A stretch of DNA of 64,000 nt, from NCBI GenBank assembly GCA_963677495.2, contig CAXXOU010000001.1:96001-160000 (forward strand). The letters are read 5' to 3'. The notes beneath the pieces were generated by a model, which did no database searches, was not told the origin of the DNA, and worked only from the letters and a program-made list of their open reading frames with translations. The translations under genes and the position numbers were made by a program. Positions 4,210 through 33,006 of the stretch are shown one piece after another (within the stretch, counting starts at the first letter, position 1; every line of letters begins with the position of its first letter). Origin of the DNA: Candidatus Cloacimonadales bacterium. Its GTDB lineage: Bacteria > Cloacimonadota > Cloacimonadia > Cloacimonadales > JAFGVF01.

Positions 4210-5274
4210 TTGATGAGAACATGTGGAAATCGTTACGGCACACATAGAGTTGTTGAGCCACAAGGTGTTTTACCACAGCCTGCAAGAGTAGTTAACAATG
4301 ATATGACAGAGATCTGGGACAATGAAATGTTAATCGACGTAATTCGTCTTAATGTGGACTCAGCATCTTTCCATCAGATTAAAGAAAAACTTATTGCTCA
4401 GGGTCACGAGAATGATCTTGAACAGGCTTTTGCTGATCATGTTATTGATCTTACTGACAGAACAGGAAAACATAAAAATGAAGATACAGGTTCAGGCGGA
4501 ATGCTTATTGGTCGCGTATCTGCAATCGGACCTAACTTCGAAATGAAAGAGGAAGTTAAAGTTGGCGATAAAATCGCTACACTCGTATCACTTTCACTTA
4601 CTCCTCTGAAAGTAAACAAAGTAAACAAAGTTCATTTAAATAAAGATCAAGTTGATGTTGAAGGACAAGCAATTCTTTTCAGCTCAGGTATCTATGCTAA
4701 ATTACCTGAAGATATGGATGAGAACCTTGCACTTTCTATTCTTGATGTAGCCGGTGCTCCTGCACAGGTTGAAAGACTTGCAAAACCGGGTGACACAGTA
4801 GTTATCCTTGGTTCAGGTGGAAAATCAGGTATTCTTTGTAATGCAATTGCTAAAGAGAGAGTTGGTGTATCCGGTAAAGTTATTGGACTTGTACATCATG
4901 AAAACCATAAAAATGACTGCTACATTACCGGTTGTGACCATGTTGCTATTGGTGATGCAACTAATGCAGTTCAGGTTGAAGAAATTGTGCACAAAGCTAC
5001 TGATGGTAAGATGGCTGACCTTGTTGTAAACGTTGTGAACGTTGATAACACAGAGATGGCTTCAATCATGGCTTGTAAAGATAGAGGAGTGGTTTACTTC
5101 TTCTCAATGGCAACATCTTTCACAAAGGCTGCTCTTGGTGCAGAAGGTATTGGAGCTGATGTTGATATGATCCTTGGTAATGGTTATGCTCATAATCACG
5201 CAATGATCTCTATCGACCTTCTCAAGAGAAATGAAACTCTTATGAAGTTATTCAAAGAGAGATATACAGACTAA
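4210..5274 (+). CDS. kdd: L-erythro-3,5-diaminohexanoate dehydrogenase
   Basis: YGTHRVVEP N-terminus, GKHKNEDTGSGGMLIG, LVSLSLTPL, FFSMATSFTKAALGAEG; adjacent to kamA. Confidence 0.92.
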   Translation: MMRTCGNRYGTHRVVEPQGVLPQPARVVNNDMTEIWDNEMLIDVIRLNVDSASFHQIKEKLIAQGHENDLEQAFADHVIDLTDRTGKHKNEDTGSGGMLIGRVSAIGPNFEMKEEVKVGDKIATLVSLSLTPLKVNKVNKVHLNKDQVDVEGQAILFSSGIYAKLPEDMDENLALSILDVAGAPAQVERLAKPGDTVVILGSGGKSGILCNAIAKERVGVSGKVIGLVHHENHKNDCYITGCDHVAIGDATNAVQVEEIVHKATDGKMADLVVNVVNVDNTEMASIMACKDRGVVYFFSMATSFTKAALGAEGIGADVDMILGNGYAHNHAMISIDLLKRNETLMKLFKERYTD

Positions 5275-5291
5275 ATATTATTAGATAGACA

Positions 5292-5317
5292 TAAAAGCTC
5301 AGGAAACTGAGCTTTTT
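5292..5317 (+). terminator. Hairpin / intrinsic terminator between kdd and kamA
   Basis: AAAAGCTCAG-GAAA-CTGAGCTTTTT. Confidence 0.6.
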
Positions 5318-5340
5318 CTATCTTTCAAAGAGGTATTAAA

Positions 5341-6609
5341 ATGATTACAGATATAAAATCAACCGCAACTGAACAGGAGTGGAACGACTGGCATTGGCAG
5401 TTGAGAAATAGAATCTCAACAGTCGAAGAGTTAAAAAAATATATCGTTCTTACTGAAGAAGAAGAAGCACTTTTTGCTGATGAAGATTTCTCATTCAGAA
5501 TGGCCATTACTCCTTACTACCTTTCACTTATCGATCATTATGATCCTAATGACCCTATCAGAAAACAGGCTATTCCTGCTATTATGGAAAGCTTCCTATC
5601 TAAAAATGATATGGCTGACCCATTGCATGAGGATGTTGATTCTCCTGCAAAAGGTCTCACACATAGATATCCGGATCGTACACTTCTCTTAGTTACAGAT
5701 CAGTGTTCAATGTATTGTCGTCACTGTACTCGCCGTCGTAAAGCCGGTGAGAATGATATGGCAATGCCTATGTCTGAAATTAATAAAGGAATTGAATATA
5801 TTAGACAGCATAAAGAAGTGCGTGATGTAATCATCAGTGGTGGCGACCCACTTACATTAGGAGAGAAGAGACTTGAAGAGATTATCTCTCAGCTTTATGA
5901 AATAGAGCATGTTGACATAATCAGAATCGGTTCCAGAACTCCTGTTGTTCAGCCACAAAGAATCACAGATGAGCTTTGTGCGATGTTTAAGAAGTATCCA
6001 CCAATTTGGTTCAATACACATTTTAATCACCCTAATGAGATTACTCCTGAGTCAAAAGAAGCTCTAAGAAAGCTCGCAGAATCAGGTGTGGTTCTTGGTA
6101 ATCAGACAGTTCTACTTAAAGGTGTAAATGATCATGTTGAGGTTATGAAAAAACTCATGCACCTTCTTGTTAAGAACCGTGTTAGACCTTATTATATTTA
6201 CCAATGTGACCTTTCTGAAGGTATTTCTCACTTCAGAACTCCAATTTCAAAAGGTATTGAGATTATTGAGTCATTGAGAGGACATACATCAGGTTTATGT
6301 GTTCCTACTTTTGTTGTAGACGCACCGGGTGGTGGTGGAAAGATTCCAGTACAGCCAAACTACATCTTATCACAGATGCCTGGAAGAGTTATTCTTCGCA
6401 ACTATGAAGGCTTCATTACAACATACACAGAACCTCAGTATCAGATACAGAAACGCGAAGATTATCGTGGATTAGTTGAAGAGGTAAGACGTTCTGATGA
6501 TGGTGTTATGAATCTTCTCTATGGTAATAATCTTTCATTTGGTCCTGAAGATACCAAACGTAATGTTCGTCAGGAACAGATTAAAGCTTTTAAAGCTAAA
6601 CAAGACTAG
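5341..6609 (+). CDS. kamA: Lysine 2,3-aminomutase (radical SAM, PLP)
   Basis: WNDWHWQL, THRYPDR, CSMYCRHCTRRR (CxxxCxxC), DAPGGGGKIP. Confidence 0.97.
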   Translation: MITDIKSTATEQEWNDWHWQLRNRISTVEELKKYIVLTEEEEALFADEDFSFRMAITPYYLSLIDHYDPNDPIRKQAIPAIMESFLSKNDMADPLHEDVDSPAKGLTHRYPDRTLLLVTDQCSMYCRHCTRRRKAGENDMAMPMSEINKGIEYIRQHKEVRDVIISGGDPLTLGEKRLEEIISQLYEIEHVDIIRIGSRTPVVQPQRITDELCAMFKKYPPIWFNTHFNHPNEITPESKEALRKLAESGVVLGNQTVLLKGVNDHVEVMKKLMHLLVKNRVRPYYIYQCDLSEGISHFRTPISKGIEIIESLRGHTSGLCVPTFVVDAPGGGGKIPVQPNYILSQMPGRVILRNYEGFITTYTEPQYQIQKREDYRGLVEEVRRSDDGVMNLLYGNNLSFGPEDTKRNVRQEQIKAFKAKQD

Positions 6610-6616
6610 TTTCAAT

Positions 6617-6638
6617 GCCCCCTTTCATAGGGGGCTTT
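6617..6638 (+). terminator. GC hairpin after kamA
   Basis: GCCCCCT-TTCAT-AGGGGGC-TTT. Confidence 0.5.
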
Positions 6639-6645
6639 ACTTCTT

Positions 6646-7650
6646 ATGACAGCATACGATCAAATAAAACACTCTCTTTTTCCCAATGAAAGAATGGTAA
6701 TTGCAATTACCGGGCTTTCTAAGAATGCAGGGAAAACTTCTCTCCTAAATTGGTTGTTAAAGCATTTTCCACAGTATGAATATGGTTTAACAACTACCGG
6801 TAGAGATGGAGAGGAGAAGGACTTGGTTTTTGGAACCGAAAAACCAAAAGTAATCGTTTCTAAAGGAACAATAATTACGACTTTTGCTACTGAAATACAA
6901 CGTAACGCTCATTGTTATGAAGTACTTGAGAAAACAAGATTTCAGGCTGGAGGGAAGGATATTTGGATAGTACGGACAATCGCTGATTCCGAAGCTGAGA
7001 TTGTAGGCCCTGCCAGTGTAAGTGAACAACAAGAGATAATCAAAAGGCTACGCATTCTTGGAGCTAGTACCATAGTTATAGATGGTTCTTTAGATAGAAA
7101 AGCAGTTCTGTTAAATGAAAAGGTTCAAGCCATGATTATTGCTGCTGGTGCTAATTATGGTAATAGTGACTCCATTATCAAAGAACTTCGAAGATTGCAT
7201 ATTCTAAGAAATATTCCGATTGAGAGTGATGTACTAGCCAATCTGGACAATATTGCCATTTTCAAAGCTGGATGGATTCAAACAGAGTTACAGTCGTTAC
7301 TTGGAAATGAAAAGCAATTCCTTGAATTATGTCATGATCAGTATCCAGATAAGATATACATTCCAGGTGCGATTACAGGAGCAAATTGGCATAAACTTGG
7401 TAGTTTCTTTCTATCATTCCATGGGCGAGTTATAATCAGACATCCTTTTAATCTGCAGTTGAATCTAGTGAATGTCGAATTAATCTCAGAAGAGTTAGAT
7501 ATTACGACAGTCTATCCATTTATAATGAATGCAATAGCTGTGAATAGTGGGGCAATCAATGGTAATCACATAGATAGCGAGGCATTGTTAGCGGAAGTTA
7601 GAGAGTATATCCCAGAGTTACCTGTAATTGACATTATGGGCATCGAATAA
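6646..7650 (+). CDS. KamB-like P-loop protein (lysine 5,6-aminomutase reactivase subunit-like)
   Basis: ITGLSKNAGKTSLLN, TTGRDGE, IDGSLDR motifs; directly downstream of kamA as in clostridial lysine clusters. Confidence 0.7.
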   Translation: MTAYDQIKHSLFPNERMVIAITGLSKNAGKTSLLNWLLKHFPQYEYGLTTTGRDGEEKDLVFGTEKPKVIVSKGTIITTFATEIQRNAHCYEVLEKTRFQAGGKDIWIVRTIADSEAEIVGPASVSEQQEIIKRLRILGASTIVIDGSLDRKAVLLNEKVQAMIIAAGANYGNSDSIIKELRRLHILRNIPIESDVLANLDNIAIFKAGWIQTELQSLLGNEKQFLELCHDQYPDKIYIPGAITGANWHKLGSFFLSFHGRVIIRHPFNLQLNLVNVELISEELDITTVYPFIMNAIAVNSGAINGNHIDSEALLAEVREYIPELPVIDIMGIE

Positions 7651-7720: not shown

Positions 7721-8701
7721 ATGAAAAACTCGGCAGTTGTAGTTACAATTACCGATAAGGGTTATATAATACCAACCTTTATCTTGATTCTGTCACTAAA
7801 ATATTTCAAAGTACAAGCACATGTAAATGTACTTTGTGTTGGATTATCTGAAGCAGAGAAGAAGCTATTCTCTCAATTTGAGGATGTGAATACTTTTGAT
7901 GCTGATTTGGATAACCATCGCAATCCAACCACTCGAAAAGCAGAAGCTATATTAACAGCTAAAGATGGTGGTTATGAGATGATAAGCTTATTTGACGGAG
8001 ACTGTATAGTAACAGGAGACATAACTCCATTCTTCAGACAAGATGAGCCGTCCTTATCTGCTAGATTCAAATCACCCAAAGAGGATGGTTGGGTGTTCTC
8101 AAAGTATTATCAACCCGATGATATATATGGATACATACCCAAAGTTATACTTGAGCAATGGAAGATGGATGTTGGAGAATCTGAAACACCACGAAGGAAG
8201 AACACAGTTGCTGGAGGTAATCTATCAATTCATAAAGACTACTTATGGTTTATCGATAAGTGGCATACACAAATGATGAAAGTACTTCCTAATTACAACA
8301 CGGGTGTTGCATATGATTACTCACTAACAGCTTATTCTCAACTGGATGAATCAGTGCTAAACTCACTTCTTACTTTTGCTGATAAAGTACCCCCATTAAC
8401 AGCAGGTAAATTTGATACTGATCCAAACATTTATTTAGCTCATCTAGGTCCTGGACGACCTAGATACTGGAAGCGATTCCCTAAAAGAAAACTTGTCTAT
8501 CTTGACTCAATACTTACTTTTATTAAATGGGGAAGAGAGAAAGGATATAGCTTCCCAATACTTTCTTGGCCTTTAAACCCGAAGTTGCGACTGTTTACAA
8601 AGGCTATTGCATATCTTTTCGAGACTAAAGAACTTGCCAAAAAGATAGTAAAAAAGATTTTGATTATCCTACATTTAAGAAAATATCAGGAGGAGATTTG
8701 A
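7721..8701 (+). CDS. Putative GT-A fold glycosyltransferase (GT8-like)
   Basis: N-terminal VTITDKGY..ILSL, DxD motif (FDGDCIVTGDI), later DESVLN. Confidence 0.55.
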   Translation: MKNSAVVVTITDKGYIIPTFILILSLKYFKVQAHVNVLCVGLSEAEKKLFSQFEDVNTFDADLDNHRNPTTRKAEAILTAKDGGYEMISLFDGDCIVTGDITPFFRQDEPSLSARFKSPKEDGWVFSKYYQPDDIYGYIPKVILEQWKMDVGESETPRRKNTVAGGNLSIHKDYLWFIDKWHTQMMKVLPNYNTGVAYDYSLTAYSQLDESVLNSLLTFADKVPPLTAGKFDTDPNIYLAHLGPGRPRYWKRFPKRKLVYLDSILTFIKWGREKGYSFPILSWPLNPKLRLFTKAIAYLFETKELAKKIVKKILIILHLRKYQEEI

Positions 8702-8709
8702 TAGAAGAA

Positions 8710-9357
8710 ATGAAAAGAGTAATCATCTTTTTTTTCATGATTATGGGTGGATCGATTTTATTTAGTGCTGGTAGCCATTCATGTTGAGGACCTCCACCTA
8801 AATATGTCGAGTTCGACAATGGAGTTAAGGTTCTTACCAGTGAGTTGTCAAAATACGAAAAAGCTTTTACAGGATGGGAACTAGAGAATGGAGAGTTAAC
8901 AGGTAAAAAGATTAAGTTCATTCAAGTAGCAACAAGTGCTAATGGAAAACACCTGTTTGTTGAACATAGCAAGCTAGATCATTTTTCACGTTATAGTGGA
9001 ATCAAACTTAAAGCGAAGAGATATTTTAAAGCCTTGTTAAAGGGAAAAATAGAAGCTAGGTCCATAAGTACATCCCTTAGGAAATTTGACAACTATGGTT
9101 TTGTATCAAGAGAAGTAAAACTCGCTGATGGTGTTAACTTGTTTGTTTTTTCTAATGAATCCAAAAAAGGTTTAGCTATTCAGGGTCCTAATTCACTCTA
9201 CTTTGATTTCTTTCCCGCTAATAACAGTGAGTTGATAAATAAGATAACCGATATGTTGATTGAATCTAATTTAACTGTTGCGAAAGAACCTCAGAACAAC
9301 TATATTAGTTTACGAGATATAGGAATATCAAAAAAATTTAAGGAAAACTTACAATGA
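8710..9357 (+). CDS. Putative secreted selenoprotein, paralog 1 (215 aa; UGA at 8785-8787 in a Cys-Sec dipeptide)
   Basis: ATG 8710 is in frame with ORF 8845-9357 and reads MKRVIIFFFMIMGGSILFSAGSHSC*GPPPKY; signal-peptide-like N-terminus; hairpin downstream of the UGA. Confidence 0.75.
8788..8833 (+). promoter_or_regulatory. Candidate bacterial SECIS element 1
   Basis: Upper stem TGTCG-[AGTT]-CGACA (loop 8810-8813); lower stem CTCCA/TGGAG. Confidence 0.6.
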
Positions 9358-9971
9358 AGAGAACTATCATTTTATCTATTCTAATAGCATATGCTATTAG
9401 CTTATTTGGAGCCGGTTGAGCTCCACCATCGTTTATTACCGGGTCCGGTAATGACCAGAAACATATCGTTTCAGAATTTGAAATGGTACAACACTCAGTG
9501 ACAAAAGACCCCACTGCCCCGGGTGGTATGAAAGAAGAAGTAACAGTAATCGTTAATCTAACAAAGGATGAAAAGACATTAATTTTCCCACATGATAAGC
9601 TTACTAAAAGGACAAAACTGGTTGGTAGTAAAGGGAAAGCATTGAATCTTCTGAACTCAGTCAAAAAGCAGACAAAGATTTGGTCTACTTGTGAATCCAT
9701 AAGAACAATAAGTGCCATCGGGACTGTGAATAAAGAGATTATCATGAATGATAATACAGAAATTCTTCTAATAGATAAAGAGAATAAGCCTTATGGATTA
9801 GCTATCAAGAAAGCTGATGGACTAGCGTTTGATTTCTTTGCACTAGAGTCAGATTATGGTGATATACTAAAAGCAGTTTATAAAAAACTCAATGACTATT
9901 CTCCTGCAGATTGTGGTTCATGTCGGAGAGAAACGATTGACTTTAGAGGATTAGGAACCAGCATCAAGTGA
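9354..9971 (+). CDS. Putative secreted selenoprotein, paralog 2 (205 aa; UGA at 9417-9419)
   Basis: ATGA overlap with the stop of paralog 1; reads MKRTIILSILIAYAISLFGAG*APPSFITGSGN, in frame with ORF 9483-9971; C-terminal CGSC. Confidence 0.78.
9420..9455 (+). promoter_or_regulatory. Candidate bacterial SECIS element 2
   Basis: ATTACCG-[GGTC]-CGGTAAT perfect stem, loop 9442-9445. Confidence 0.65.
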
Positions 9972-10579
9972 TTGCTTTAGTGACACTCTTAATCTTGTGG
10001 TCAGTTTCTACTTCAGTTTTTGGTAGTAATTGAATGCCTTCGTCTTCTATTATCGGTTTCGGTAATAGCGAATATGAATTTATCAAATCAGATTTTGAGG
10101 ATATAGAATACAAAGAGATTACTGTAACCGGTGCCAGTACCTATGTTAAAGAGAAGGTAACAGTATACGTTAACCCGACTACAAATGGAAAGACACTGAT
10201 TCACGGACATAAGAAGTTAAAAAAGAAAACGCAGTTATATGGATCAAAACTGAGAGCAGTATCTCTGCTTAGTGAGATTGCAAAAAGTAGATCAGTACAA
10301 ACCTATTTTGAATCAAAACGTGTAATTGATGATTATGGAATAGTCTACAAGGAAGTGACGATGAATGATTCAACAATGGTACTTCTATTTGAACCCAAGG
10401 AAGAATCTGTTAGCATTGCATTGAAACCTAAAGATGGAAAAGTCTTTAACTATTTTTCATCAGCTAAGGACTATAAAGGATTGATTGAAAGAGTGTATAA
10501 TAGATTGAATCTCATGGGTCCGAATGAGATGACCACAAAGCAAAAAATGGCTATTGATTTTAGAGGATTAGGAGAATAA
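9968..10579 (+). CDS. Putative secreted selenoprotein, paralog 3 (203 aa; UGA at 10031-10033)
   Basis: GTGA overlap with the stop of paralog 2; reads MIALVTLLILWSVSTSVFGSN*MPSSSIIGFGN, in frame with ORF 10034-10579. Confidence 0.72.
10034..10072 (+). promoter_or_regulatory. Candidate bacterial SECIS element 3
   Basis: CTATTATCG-[GTTT]-CGGTAATAG (one G-U pair), loop 10056-10059; lower pairing TTCG/CGAA. Confidence 0.65.
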
Positions 10580-11593
10580 CTAATCCTCTTTTTTTAATGT
10601 TCTTGTCATTAAAGATTTTATTGCTTCTAACGGATTCTTTTCATTAAAAAGTACTTCGTGCACCTGCTCTGTGATTGGCATCTCGACATCATACTTCTTA
10701 CTAAGAGCATAAACTGAAATAGTAGAATCTACTCCCTCTGCAACCATCTTCATAGTTTCCAGGATTTGGTTAAGAGTCTTACCACTTCCTATCTCAAAAC
10801 CTACATATCTATTACGACTGTGTTTGCTCATTGCTGTCGTTATGAGGTCTCCTATGCCAGATAAACCTAAAAAGGTTTCCGGGTTTGCTCCCATTACTTT
10901 ACCTAGACGCTTAACTTCAGCAACACCTCTTGTTAATAAAGCTCCCATAGTATTGTCACCTAACCCAAGACCTTCTGTGATTCCTGCAGCGATAGCAATA
11001 ATATTCTTAACAGCACCACCAAGCTCTACTCCCATTAGATCATTGGAGCTATATACTCTGAAGTAGTTATTACTGAAGGTATTTTGTACAAGCTTCTGGT
11101 TATCTTTTGTTGATCCGGCAATCACAACAGCAGTTGATACTTCTTTAGCTACTTCTTCTGCATGACTTGGACCCGAAAGTGTCATTATTTTCTCACTACT
11201 AAGTACAGTTAAGGACTCACTTAGAACTTCAGACATTCGTTTTAATGATTGCTTTTCAACCCCTTTAGCTACATTGATAACAGCTTCAATTCCATTGGAT
11301 TTTAAGAGTAGTGGATTCACTTGTTCAGCAACTTTCCTTAGAACCTGTGAAGGAACAGCAAAAAGAAGGATGTCGAACTCTCCGGTAACAACATCATCAA
11401 GGTTATTACTAAAACAGATAGTCTCATCGAGATGGATACCGGGAAGAAAAACGGTATTAGTGTGTGTGTGTATGAGCTCATCGGCTCTTTCTTTATCAAA
11501 TTCCCAAACCTTCACTTCATGTCCATTAACAGCTAAAAGGTTAGCTAATGCCAAACCCCAGCTACCACCACCGATTACTCTAACTCTTTGCAT
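10580..11593 (-). CDS. gpsA: NAD(P)H-dependent glycerol-3-phosphate dehydrogenase
   Basis: GGGSWG, SGPSHAEEV, GGAVKNIIAIAAG, GIGDLITT..SRN. Confidence 0.97.
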   Translation of the reverse strand: MQRVRVIGGGSWGLALANLLAVNGHEVKVWEFDKERADELIHTHTNTVFLPGIHLDETICFSNNLDDVVTGEFDILLFAVPSQVLRKVAEQVNPLLLKSNGIEAVINVAKGVEKQSLKRMSEVLSESLTVLSSEKIMTLSGPSHAEEVAKEVSTAVVIAGSTKDNQKLVQNTFSNNYFRVYSSNDLMGVELGGAVKNIIAIAAGITEGLGLGDNTMGALLTRGVAEVKRLGKVMGANPETFLGLSGIGDLITTAMSKHSRNRYVGFEIGSGKTLNQILETMKMVAEGVDSTISVYALSKKYDVEMPITEQVHEVLFNEKNPLEAIKSLMTRTLKKED

Positions 11594-11656: not shown

Positions 11657-11932
11657 CTAAAAGTCATCATCGTCATCATCATCATCCCAGTCATCCTCAC
11701 CGTTTACCCAGTCAGGACAGAACAAGGCATCTTCTTCGAAATCCCATCCATCCACGTTTTCTAAGCCGAAACGATTGAGAATATCCTCTTCCCACAACGA
11801 ATATTGAACTGTTCCGTCAGTTACCTGCCAGACCAGTATAGGCTTAGAATACTTTCGCAATTCGATAGTTGGATTCTCTGTCATTTGCAGAAATTCGACT
11901 ATCTTCTCTCTGCGAGATTCCTTTTGCATCAT
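11657..11932 (-). CDS. Small hypothetical protein with poly-Asp tail
   Basis: ORF with AAGGAG RBS ahead of ATG 11932; ends DDWDDDDDDDDF. Confidence 0.6.
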   Translation of the reverse strand: MMQKESRREKIVEFLQMTENPTIELRKYSKPILVWQVTDGTVQYSLWEEDILNRFGLENVDGWDFEEDALFCPDWVNGEDDWDDDDDDDDF

Positions 11933-11944
11933 GATTGACACTCC

Positions 11945-30333: not shown

Positions 30334-30562
30334 TCATTCCTCCATGGAGTAAACATTCAAATTCAGAGAAAAGCACTCTTTGTCAAGTTGTAAATGGAAT
30401 GTTAAACACCCCTCTCCATTGAAATCATAGCGAGTTTCAACTCATAAGGGGAGTTTGCCGGAGATGTCAATGGCAGTGAGAAATGGTACACGATGGCAGT
30501 GAAAAGTGGTACAAAACTGCCAACCTTTAAAAATGACTACTTCAAGACAGTTTGGAGTAGGT

Positions 30563-32039
30563 ATGATTGGAGTAGAAGTGTATCATTCAATAAAAACTAT
30601 GCATAAGCAAGGGCATAGTCAGCGTAAGATCGCAGAGGAGTTGTCTCTATCAAAGACAACAGTAGGTAAATACATAAATATGACACTTGATGAGTTCATG
30701 GAACTAATAAACAATAGCATTCGTGAAAGCAGTTTTGCCATATGTGAGCAATATGTCCGCGAAAGGCTTAGCAAATATCCACGATTAAGAGCTAGTGTAC
30801 TATATTTAGAAGTTAAGAAAAAGTTCCCTGAGATAAAAGCAAAAGACAGAGCTTTCCGAGATTTTGTTCGTAAGCTAAAGCAGACTTATCCTGTCGATAA
30901 ATACCGTAATTATGCAGTTATCGAGACGGCTCCCGGTGTTCAGGTTCAAGTTGATCCAGGTGAGATGAAAGTAGTTTTGGGTAATAAACGTCAAAGAGTT
31001 TATTTTATAGTTTTTGTGCTTTCCACTCGCGTCAAAGCTATGTCCATTGGAGCACAACACCATATAACACATCAAGGTTTATTGAAGCTCATCGTGAAGC
31101 TTTTATCTATTTTGAAGGTATCCCTTCAGAGTGTGTTTACGACCAGACAAAGCTTGTAGTAATACAGGAACGCTATCGGGAAGTAATCTTAAATAATCAG
31201 TTCCATCAGTTTGCAGCAAAAACGGGCTTTCATCCTCATGTATGCGAAGGCTATGATCCACAAAGCAAGGGTAAAGTAGAGCGTAATGTCTCAGAAGTAA
31301 AGCATGGCTTTATGTATGGCAAAGAGTTCAAAGACCTGGCAGACCTGCGTTCACGCGGACTTGAGTGGCTTTTACACTTTAACGGCAGAACCCATGGCAC
31401 AACCCGTAAAGTACCATCAGAAGTATGGCAAGAAGAGAGGTTAAAGCTAAAAGATATTCCAGAGTTTATCTTCACTTTAGAAGTTCGTAATGCAGATAAA
31501 ACAGGCTTAATCTCGTATGAGGGTAATAAGTACTCTGTTCCATTAGAGTATCAGCGAAAACAGGTATATGTGCAAAAAGAAAAAGAGCACTTTAGTGGTG
31601 ATGGATATTTATACAAGAAAGGAAATCTGCCAACATGAGCTATGCACAGAAAAAAGGCAAAATCATCAAAAACACTAATCATTATCGGGATTTTACGGTA
31701 GTGCTACAAGAGCTTATTGAGCGAGTAAAGGATGAGATGAGTGAATATATCCAAGGAGAAGAACTAATCCAGAGGCTTGTTAATGATAACCCTAAAATAG
31801 CAAGGGATCAGTTGAGAGCCTTAAGCAAGTTTAAGCGTAACTATGAAACAGATGTATGGGAGTCAGTGCTTCCTGAGGTAATGACTCTTTCGCATGTAAA
31901 GGCAACAGCCATAGAGAAGCTTCTGAATGCAAAAGTAAGACAAATGAAGCTAAATGAATTATCAGAATCAGAACCACAACAAGACTCAGAGAGTTCATTA
32001 ATAGAGCGCTCATTAGATGACTACATGAAGGTGTTATAA
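30563..32039 (+). pseudogene. istA: IS21 transposase IstA, three single-base frameshifts (~31024, ~31591, ~31655)
   Basis: HTH start, ETAPGVQVQVD, then in shifted frames YDQTKLVV, PQSKGKVER, HGTT, GLISYEGNKYSVP; indels fall in short homopolymers, so may be assembly error. Confidence 0.8.
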
Positions 32040-32040
32040 G

Positions 32041-32773
32041 ATGATAGAGATAACTAAAACATACATCAAAAGGGCTCGTTGTACTCATATTTTGAATACT
32101 CTTGAAAGTGCAGTTTTTAGAAGCAGAGAAACAGAATATGACTTATCTGGAGTTCGTACATTATCTATTTGAAAAAGAGAACTCAGGAAGGAATCAAACC
32201 AATATCAACAGAAGACTTAAACAGGCTCACATCCCGGTAATAAAGACCTTTGATGAGTTCGACTATGCTTATCAACAAGTAATAACCAAAAGACAAGTAA
32301 AGGAGTGGAAGAACTTTGTCTGGCTGGAGCAGAGGAGGAATATAATTTTAATGGGACCTCCGGGAGTAGGTAAGACTCATGTTGCAACAGCACTCAGTTA
32401 TGAAGCAATAAAGGCAGGCTATAAGGTGGTGTTTTATAATCTGAACAACCTTATCGAAGAACTTGTACTAGCTGAAGCAGATAACAACATAGATAAATAT
32501 CTAAGCAATATAGCCAAGAATGATCTGATAGTTATAGATGAGATGGGGTATCTTCCTCTCCAGACAAAGGCAGCTAATCTGTTCTTTAGACTCATCCATC
32601 TCTTATACGAATTTAGATCAGTAATCATAACATCGAATAGGTTGTTTAATGAATGGGGAGCTATTTTTAACGACAATGTGATAGCAACTGCTATTCTTGA
32701 TAGATTACTCCATCACTCACAACCAATTACAATGCTCGGAGATAGCTTTAGACTAAGGAATTTTCAAAAATGA
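32041..32773 (+). CDS. istB: IS21 helper ATPase IstB (apparent +1 frameshift near 32105)
   Basis: GPPGVGKTH Walker A, LIVIDEMGY Walker B, ITSN, ILDRLLHH; upstream ATG 32041 is out of frame by one A. Confidence 0.9.
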
Positions 32774-33006
32774 AGACTGTACCATTTTTAAATGCCAAAC
32801 TGTACCAATTTAAAATGCCATTGACAGCCGGAGATGAACGAAGTAAAACGAAAGAGGACTTCCTCTATGAGTTGAACGTAAGTTGAACTCATAGTTGTGT
32901 ACATTGCAAACTCGCTTAATCTTTTAACATCGGTTCCCTTTTCCCCTTTGGCGTCAATAGCTTCTCTTTATCTAATCCCTACAAGAATCTTTTTGCACCG
33001 TTAAAT

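Follow-up and report, generated by a model that had tools for sequence, protein, structure and literature searches.

Candidate selenocysteine codons in a tandem family of exported proteins from one genus of Cloacimonadales

How is a UGA codon to be read when it follows directly on a signal-peptide-like start and is itself followed by a long open frame? This question is raised by three adjoining genes, here called g1, g2 and g3, in a stretch of 64,000 nt from Candidatus Cloacimonadales bacterium (GenBank assembly GCA_963677495.2, contig CAXXOU010000001.1, positions 96,001 to 160,000; hereafter the window, meaning the whole stretch analysed). The genome to which the window belongs comprises 3.4 Mb and is 99.5% complete. 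From sequence comparisons, we consider it likely that g1, g2 and g3 constitute a family of exported proteins whose internal UGA is decoded as selenocysteine (Sec, U). The family is very probably genuine, undescribed and restricted to one genus of Cloacimonadales.

In-frame UGA codons and the hairpins behind them

Read through the internal UGA, the three products have the N-termini MKRVIIFFFMIMGGSILFSAGSHSC-U-GPPPKYVEFDN... (g1), MKRTIILSILIAYAISLFGAG-U-APPSFITGSGN... (g2) and, from a GTG start, (M)IALVTLLILWSVSTSVFGSN-U-MPSSSIIGFGN... (g3). About 180 open codons lie downstream of the internal TGA in each gene. The original prediction, made from the letters of the window, described three tandem paralogs, each with an in-frame UGA behind a signal-peptide-like start, and the sequence, its translations and a genome search agree with this description. 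With g2 as the query and the whole genome translated in six frames, we recovered g3 (E 1.7e-37, 38% identity) and g1 (E 5.9e-8, 29% identity), which bears out the claim that the proteins are divergent homologs; g1, g2 and g3 were the only family matches in the genome. The three share the C-terminal motif (I/L)D(F/L)RG(L/M)G, and the C-terminal CxxC noted earlier in g2 is CGSC at residues 187 to 190. The predicted overlaps of g2 and g3 with the preceding stops are both present, as ATGA (9354-9357, g1 stop and g2 start) and GTGA (9968-9971, g2 stop and g3 start).

In a genome-wide scan, we looked for signal-like peptides of 15 to 40 aa with a stop behind them and at least 120 open codons after the stop. 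With TGA as the stop, 11 cases were returned: g1, g2 and g3, two genes for exported thioredoxin-motif selenoproteins, and 6 unconvincing frames. TAA gave 5 cases and TAG gave 0. The arrangement of signal peptide, UGA and open frame in g1 to g3 is not due to chance.

The genome has the machinery for Sec insertion that the proposed decoding calls for. selA (535 bits), selB (323 bits), selD (381 bits; G000:C1:618556-619476, minus strand, L010) and tRNA-Sec (57 bits; anticodon tca, or UCA) all scored over the curated cut-offs, and in the congeneric genomes G001 to G003 selA and tRNA-Sec were over the cut-off in 3 of 3. selD is itself a UGA gene (TAAG-U-GAKLG) with a G-rich hairpin loop downstream. 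Behind the UGA of a peroxiredoxin gene lies a 7-bp hairpin with the loop AGUU. Two genes for large exported proteins, at L040 and L041, each have a UGA followed by a hairpin with a GGUC loop; their products carry signal peptides, C-terminal sorting domains of the type IX secretion system (Por_Secre_tail, FlgD_ig) and the N-terminal motifs W-U-GYCP and T-U-GFCP. They are probably secreted thioredoxin-motif selenoproteins truncated by annotation. A genome-wide coding-potential scan for UGA genes was too strict, as its 9 candidates missed selD, g1 and g3.

Other genomes hold the same family with the same codon. A profile search of 1.84 billion representative proteins returned 6 family representatives, namely the three truncated forms from this genome, the truncated proteins of G001 and G002, and a 166-aa JGI protein (P0010) that begins 17 residues past the aligned U position. 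In six-frame searches, the family was found in 3 of 61 related genomes and in 3 of 232 genomes of the phylum, both counts including the window's own genome. All genome matches fell within one genus, of which a fourth genome is 72% complete. In G001 and G002, a family gene occupies the same place as here, between a GT8-like gene and gpsA, and the orthologs begin MKVVILVLTVLFTINVFASG-U-VPPAFITGSGD... (G001) and MKKIMLLLVVAVIGINLFAQ-U-APPSFITGSDD... (G002). UGA thus stands at the aligned position in all five members that bear a signal peptide (g1, g2, g3, G001 and G002, from 3 species), and none of the five has Trp or another sense codon there. Each refuting condition named in the original prediction that we were able to check came out in its favour. 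Mean column identity across the family domain is 47%. Cys113 and the CxxC of g2 are both conserved in G001 and P0010, and G002 has the CxxC only.

The two orthologs differ in build. In G001, two domains share a single open reading frame (ORF) of 373 aa (L025:982-2103, minus strand): a g2-type one, which has the signal peptide and U, and a g3-type one joined in frame behind it. The fusion suggests, at the level of sequence, that g2- and g3-type paralogs work together as a unit and that one N-terminal arm is enough. The G002 ortholog (L027:1297-1728, minus strand) has 143 aa and lacks about 60 residues of mid-domain; it retains the signal peptide, U, the arm and the C-terminal CxxC...DLRGMG. Further searches added no members: a word-indexed homolog search with g2 found only the genome's own truncated protein, scans of metagenome contigs with the family alignment and with P0010 gave no confirmed relative (a 4-row alignment found only G001), and an ESM Atlas search gave no usable match.

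The original prediction presumed a hairpin past each UGA. Bacterial selenocysteine insertion sequence (SECIS) elements that bind SelB have GU in the apical loop, as in E. coli fdhF, and the distance from UGA to loop is about 16 to 37 nt in the bSECISearch model. When the 66 nt downstream of each UGA were folded, stem-loops formed at nt 17 to 38 in g2 and g3 and at nt 21 to 34 in g1. From the UGA to +45, the alignment of the five genes is free of gaps, and their hairpins stand in the same register. Across the five, a 9-pair helix had 86.7% of its cells paired and 4 of 9 pairs changed on both sides; in controls with the partner slid by 1 to 3 columns, 29 to 62% of the cells were paired and 0 to 1 pairs changed on both sides. 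The covariation score was attained by 14 of 500 shuffles.

We also applied a fixed rule for the hairpin: a stem of at least 5 bp, a 4-nt loop with GU at loop position 1-2 or 2-3, and a loop start 21 to 32 nt from the U. In g1, g2, g3 (Table 1) and G001 (stem of 11 bp), the loop started at +26. As background, 1,941 of the 155,542 TGA trinucleotides in the genome (1.25%) agreed with the rule, and 328 (0.21%) did so with at least 7 bp. None of 10 terminal TGAs examined in the window agreed with it; these 10 included the stops of g1 and g2. Two loops are common to the Sec genes of this genome: AGUU in the peroxiredoxin and g1, and GGUC in the two thioredoxin-motif genes and g2. An Rfam scan of 8600-10700 gave chance-level matches to unrelated families only. 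The presumed hairpin was thus found in register in all members, co-varying and similar to those of the genome's other Sec genes. Because hairpin and Sec machinery are present, and the terminal TGAs of g1 and g2 have no such hairpin, we take the internal UGAs to be read as Sec and the terminal ones to terminate. Part of the post-U peptide FITGSGN is encoded by the hairpin, so its conservation may reflect constraint on the RNA and not on the protein.

Signal peptides and processing

A hydrophobic h-region is present in 5 of 5 members, and Lys or Arg occurs in the n-region of 4 of 5; from its GTG start, g3 has neither residue there. All five have (L/V)F(A/G/S) 1 to 6 residues before U. Across 768 signal-like ORFs of the genome, [LV]F[AGS] occurred at residues 13 to 30 in 150, compared with 13 at residues 61 to 78. 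This motif looks like the usual signal peptidase I ending in the organism. By the same pattern, cleavage would fall before AG-U, SG-U, Q-U, SN-U and AGSHSC-U, and since the presumed cut follows (L/V)F(A/G/S), Sec would occupy mature position 2 to 3 (7 in g1). The earlier placement of Sec at about residue +3 of the mature protein fits such a site.

The genome encodes both lgt (228 bits) and lspA (109 bits), and we therefore tested U as a stand-in for the lipobox cysteine. According to this alternative, decoding is the same and processing alone differs: Sec would stand at +1 in a signal peptide of the lipoprotein type, the selenol would receive diacylglycerol from Lgt, LspA would cut before Sec, and a selenoether-anchored lipoprotein would result. 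The position of U exactly at the end of the h-region after small residues (FGAG-U, FASG-U) and the disordered tether behind it, as in many lipoproteins, would suit such processing. The lipobox is L-[ASTVI]-[GAS]-C with Cys at +1; 4 of the 5 members carry U there in place of Cys, and only 2 of the 5 would match a permissive PROSITE-type version if U were counted as Cys. However, the genome's own 112 lipobox-like sites are canonical: they have L, I, V or F at -3 in 91 and G in none, and at -1 they have G, A or S in 104 and N in 2 but never Q. The family residues before U (GAG, ASG, FAQ, GSN and HSC) fit this pattern poorly: the set at -3 (G, A, F, G and H) is unlike that of the 112 sites, and three members have Q, N or C at -1. 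Moreover, the spacing between h-region and U varies, from 6 residues between LFS and U in g1 to 1 in G002, which agrees better with a signal peptidase I site upstream. Titles and abstracts of the papers listed on selenocysteine and lipobox revealed no Sec-lipidated protein. We therefore regard a selenoether anchor as improbable and retain cleavage by signal peptidase I ahead of Sec.

Other readings of the internal UGA

We rejected a change of the genetic code. The window has 58 stop-to-stop ORFs that reach 150 codons or more; 12 of these, g1 and g2 included, end in TGA, so that UGA is a normal stop elsewhere in the window, as had been claimed. When 6 of the approximately 29 other TGA-bridged frames in the window were read, none resembled a single gene.

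Could the UGAs be true stops? Each gene would then consist of a hydrophobic mini-ORF and a separately started cytoplasmic domain, which is how gene callers annotate it. The database entries are indeed forms of 162, 181, 170, 276 and 96 aa, the truncation that the original prediction had expected of gene callers. Candidate internal starts also exist, namely an ATG 22 codons past the UGA in g2, a TTG 20 codons past it in g1 and an AUG directly behind it in g3, where termination and then reinitiation could yield a signal-less protein. Against this, the frame is intact across the UGA in 5 of 5 genes, and substitutions behind the UGA are of the coding type: over the 11 codons past it, g2 and G002 differ by 4 synonymous and 2 non-synonymous changes (1, 1 and 4 by codon position). 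In G001, the first 77 codons past the UGA, although they encode a conserved part of the domain, include no ATG, GTG or TTG. Upstream of their signal-peptide starts, G001 and G002 have AGGAG motifs that resemble a Shine-Dalgarno sequence, and no such motif precedes the internal candidate starts. Three tandem signal peptides in frame with paralogous domains would not be expected by chance, and a conserved, co-varying hairpin typical of the genome's Sec genes lies past each UGA. Termination with a separate downstream start, which the original prediction had named as a possible refutation, is disfavoured by these findings, and we consider it quite improbable.

Alternatively, the UGA might be read through independently of SelB by a near-cognate tRNA (e.g., for Trp, Cys or Arg), with the hairpin only raising leakiness and no selenium involved. 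Stop read-through stimulated by RNA structure is known generally. Such leakage would leave the full Sec machinery out of account, and the same loop types occur in this genome at UGAs that replace a catalytic Cys (in peroxiredoxin, SelD and the thioredoxin-type motifs). In addition, 5 of 5 members use UGA alone, never UAG or UAA. Taken together, this makes read-through without selenium very unlikely.

The TGAs are borne out by the available sequences. Logan contigs from 4 runs, which represent one sample of one study and are possibly the source of the window itself, showed 0 differences and 0 gaps over 8600-10700 at depths of 5 to 28 and keep TGA at the three codons. Decaying pseudogenes or assembly errors, which the tiny, genus-restricted family and the loss of about 60 domain residues in the G002 ortholog might bring to mind, are scarcely credible, since they would need five independent nonsense mutations at one aligned codon, always to TGA, in frames that are otherwise intact and encode a conserved domain, with letter-for-letter agreement among the contigs of the 4 runs and TGA also in the assemblies of two other species.

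Several points weigh against Sec decoding and export as set out above. The minimum free energies of the 66-nt windows are ordinary compared with shuffles (z -0.6 to -1.5), and the hairpin argument therefore rests on register and covariation. The g1 stem has only 5 bp, and in G002, where the loop also starts at +26, a C·A mismatch breaks the stem past 2 pairs. To these is added the AUG behind the UGA of g3. The second, g3-type domain of G001 has neither signal peptide nor Sec, the entire N-terminal arm being gone; Sec is thus dispensable for some domain copies. No homolog with Cys at the Sec site, and so no Sec/Cys homolog pair, was found among the 6 representatives in 1.84 billion proteins, one of which (P0010) begins past the aligned position. 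According to the deep-Sep paper (PMC12013277), almost all selenoproteins have Cys homologs. The phylogenetic depth is shallow, at 3 species of one genus, so that part of the conservation reflects shared ancestry. The signal-peptide and cleavage calls were made by simple hand-made rules and not by a trained predictor. No RNA run was present among the public sequencing runs listed as matching the locus. Finally, the function proposed below is drawn from motif analogy and chemistry, which argue for it weakly.

Locus, fold and proposed role

The features of the locus are listed in Table 1, together with the other Sec genes whose coordinates are not given above. The 326-aa gene upstream is probably co-transcribed with g1 to g3. 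It matches no Pfam family itself, and remote homologs (33 to 35% identity) carry PF01501 (GT8). Relatives about 45 to 55% identical occur in other phyla, with names including Hydrogenedentes, and these phyla are without the selenoprotein family; other genera of the same taxonomic family have only paralogs of 32 to 35% identity. We rejected this gene as a clue to function, as a distant GT8-like protein with relatives in phyla that do not have the g1-g3 family is uninformative. Downstream of g3 lies gpsA, in convergent orientation.

Table 1. Coordinates of the g1-g3 locus and of other Sec genes of the genome (window positions unless a locus is named)
Feature	Position	Strand	Description
g1	8710-9357	+	Paralog 1, 215 codons, candidate Sec at codon 26; stop TGA 9355-9357, overlapping the g2 start
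g1 signal-peptide-like segment	8710-8784	+	MKRVIIFFFMIMGGSILFSAGSHSC; likely signal peptidase I site after LFS
g1 in-frame UGA (candidate Sec)	8785-8787	+	Cys-Sec dipeptide, SCUGPP
g1 SECIS-like hairpin	8805-8818	+	5 bp, loop AGUU, loop start +26 from U of UGA
g2	9354-9971	+	Paralog 2, 205 codons, candidate Sec at codon 22, Cys113, C187xxC190; stop TGA 9969-9971, overlapping the g3 start
g2 in-frame UGA (candidate Sec)	9417-9419	+	Codon 22
g2 SECIS-like hairpin	9433-9454	+	9 bp, loop GGUC, loop start +26
g3	9968-10579	+	Paralog 3, GTG start, 203 codons, candidate Sec at codon 22, stop TAA
g3 in-frame UGA (candidate Sec)	10031-10033	+	AUG directly next
g3 SECIS-like hairpin	10047-10068	+	9 bp, loop GUUU, loop start +26
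Terminator-like hairpin (10 pairs) plus T-run, across the g3 stop	10562-10597	+	Probable end of the transcription unit
326-aa gene, distantly GT8-glycosyltransferase-like	7721-8701	+	Ends 8 nt before g1
Peroxiredoxin gene, Sec at peroxidatic position (FTFV-U-ATE)	L042:175-891, G000:C1 near 302147	-	AhpC/TSA, E 9.7e-39
Two genes for large exported proteins (621 and 962 aa)	L040:61-1926, L041:144-3032; G000:C4 near 1359026, 348629	-	In-frame TGA

Further upstream, the window holds a lysine-fermentation gene set on the plus strand (4210-7650), with L-erythro-3,5-diaminohexanoate dehydrogenase (kdd, 239 bits), lysine 2,3-aminomutase (583 bits) and a KamB-like reactivase subunit (186 bits, under its 210-bit cut-off); a terminator-like hairpin lies in this region at 6617-6635. 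Elsewhere in the window, a 94-aa ORF on the minus strand (11657-11941) ends in a run of Asp (...WDDDDDDDDF) and has no family match. At about 30430-32790 on the plus strand, two adjoining ORFs resemble, by translation, a helix-turn-helix transposase and a P-loop helper (GPPGVGKTH); the pair could be an IS21-type element.

Searches for known families and folds gave nothing usable. In Pfam-A, 0 families were matched by g1, g2 or g3 at E of 1 or less. With NCBIfam, including the SAO and Hgc models, g1 and g2 had no match, and g3 had a chance-level hit (E 0.057) to an unrelated family. A profile search of PDB gave 0 matches at E of 5 or less. We modelled g2 with AlphaFold2 on a 6-row alignment and obtained a predicted local distance difference test (pLDDT) score of 74 and a predicted template modelling (pTM) score of 0.73. 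As the signal peptide and residues 24 to 36 scored below 50, U would lie on a disordered arm. For the domain alone (7 rows), the best model had a pLDDT of 83.5 and a pTM of 0.80, and the other four had a pLDDT of 57 to 66. The modelled domain has a beta-hairpin, a helix, a five-to-six-stranded sheet and a second helix. With these models of moderate confidence, Foldseek against PDB yielded nothing above noise (best E 0.055 and 0.037, TM-score about 0.2), and a VIA-align structural search against representatives reached a best Z of 3.9, for a single polo-box or AcrIF13-like sheet with helix, which is below the usual noise level. The fold thus stays as unrecognised as it was to the original prediction. 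A predicted complex of mature g2 with mature g3 scored 0.00, was run without controls and is no evidence either way.

We propose the following sequence of events. In each mRNA, one UGA, 21 to 25 codons past the start, would be recoded as Sec in the SelB-type manner, guided by a stem-loop whose GU tetraloop at +26 has the placement and loop type of the organism's SelB-binding SECIS. The signal peptide would direct the product into the general secretory pathway, and signal peptidase I would remove it after (L/V)F(A/G/S), giving mature starts of AG-U-APP (g2), SN-U-MPS (g3) and AGSHSC-U-GPP (g1). The selenol would then sit on a Pro-rich disordered arm of about 15 residues, and behind the arm would come an alpha/beta domain, rich in beta structure and about 165 aa long. 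In all members U lies on the flexible arm; x-P-P comes next (U-MPS in g3), and g1 has a Cys-Sec pair (SCUGP). In a sulfidic, anoxic habitat, such an arm could serve a strict anaerobe as a highly nucleophilic, extracytoplasmic selenolate hook. It might capture metal jointly with other cysteines, namely the one next to U in g1 or, in g2-type members, Cys113 and those of the CxxC.

By analogy, the role that we tentatively prefer is the capture of a thiophilic metal or metalloid by the selenolate hook; the hook might alternatively hold a partner protein. Next after the metal hook, and doubtful, is a cross-linking role, in which Se-S or Se-Se bonds that resist reduction would join the paralogs to one another or to partners in the envelope. 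An improbable role for Sec is that of a lipid anchor, as discussed above, and pure selenium-dependent gating of synthesis is possible. It would be a speculative step, with odds that we regard as poor, to posit a wider class of exported proteins of anaerobes with Sec at the mature N-terminus, outside a folded active site and serving chemistry rather than catalysis. Within such a class, Se-Se or Se-S bonds that last in sulfidic, disulfide-hostile surroundings would tie paralogs or envelope partners together, and the boldest form would be a selenoether lipoprotein.

The decoding itself is of a kind already known. As in bacterial SelB/SECIS genes, of which E. coli fdhF is the prototype, g1 to g3 have an in-frame UGA, a stem-loop within the coding region and a small apical loop with G and U; selA, selB, selC and selD are in the genome, and the GGUC and AGUU loops are identical to those of its other Sec genes. 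In contrast, the protein family and possibly the fold appear to be new, with no match in Pfam, NCBIfam, PDB sequences or PDB folds. Sec would lie on a disordered N-terminal arm and not in a folded site of the CxxU or UxxC type, and no Cys homologs are known. The exported thioredoxin/DsbA-like UxxC selenoproteins at L040 and L041 come from the same organism and resemble the family in the signal peptide, the Sec soon after it and the same SECIS loop. Their U belongs to a redox motif, W-U-G-x-C-P, with which a folded domain begins, whereas g1 to g3 have no UxxC or CxxU around Sec, and the CxxC of g2 is 165 residues away.

A further parallel concerns selenoproteins with a CU motif. A preprint by Haft (10.1101/2022.07.06.499078) describes PCUGP in an N-terminal extension of HgcA and exported SaoB and SaoC proteins with terminal or pocket CU or CC, which are argued to be ligands for metals or organometals. 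The likenesses are several. The proteins had been overlooked, being truncated in databases at the UGA, and Sec is found in terminal, poorly structured extensions; the CU dipeptide recurs, as PCUGP in HgcA and SCUGP in g1; small exported dark-matter proteins with signal peptides (SaoC) from strict anaerobes are among them; and a role as soft-metal ligands has been proposed. On the other hand, the NCBIfam models revealed no sequence relationship beyond the chance-level hit of g3 mentioned above. The neighbourhood of g1 to g3 is not of the SAO or Hgc type and consists of the lysine-fermentation genes, the GT8-like gene and gpsA. Only g1 has a CU pair, the others having a lone U followed by x-P-P.

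Searches of the literature, Pfam, NCBIfam and PDB yielded no description of the family, of its tandem triplication or of the placement of Sec. For Cloacimonadota selenoproteins, the literature as listed offered only a work on the identification of tRNA-Sec, and a paper on Cloacimonadota from Ace Lake (PMC8542988) has no occurrence of "selen". On these comparisons of sequence, what appears to be new is the protein family, with its unrecognised fold, its three tandem genes and its position of Sec, and not the way in which the UGA is decoded.

The family departs from what is usual among selenoproteins. To our knowledge, nearly all of those known from bacteria are oxidoreductases whose Sec lies in a structured active site, and they have numerous relatives with Cys; here there is no recognisable fold, there are no Cys relatives, three copies stand in tandem, and Sec would be carried on a floppy arm. 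Because gene callers truncate all known members (96 to 276 aa), such proteins would be systematically invisible in metagenome annotation. If our reading is true, g1, g2 and g3 would represent a new selenoprotein family and would point to a non-catalytic use of selenium outside the cytoplasm of strict anaerobes, for example in metal capture or in reduction-proof cross-linking.

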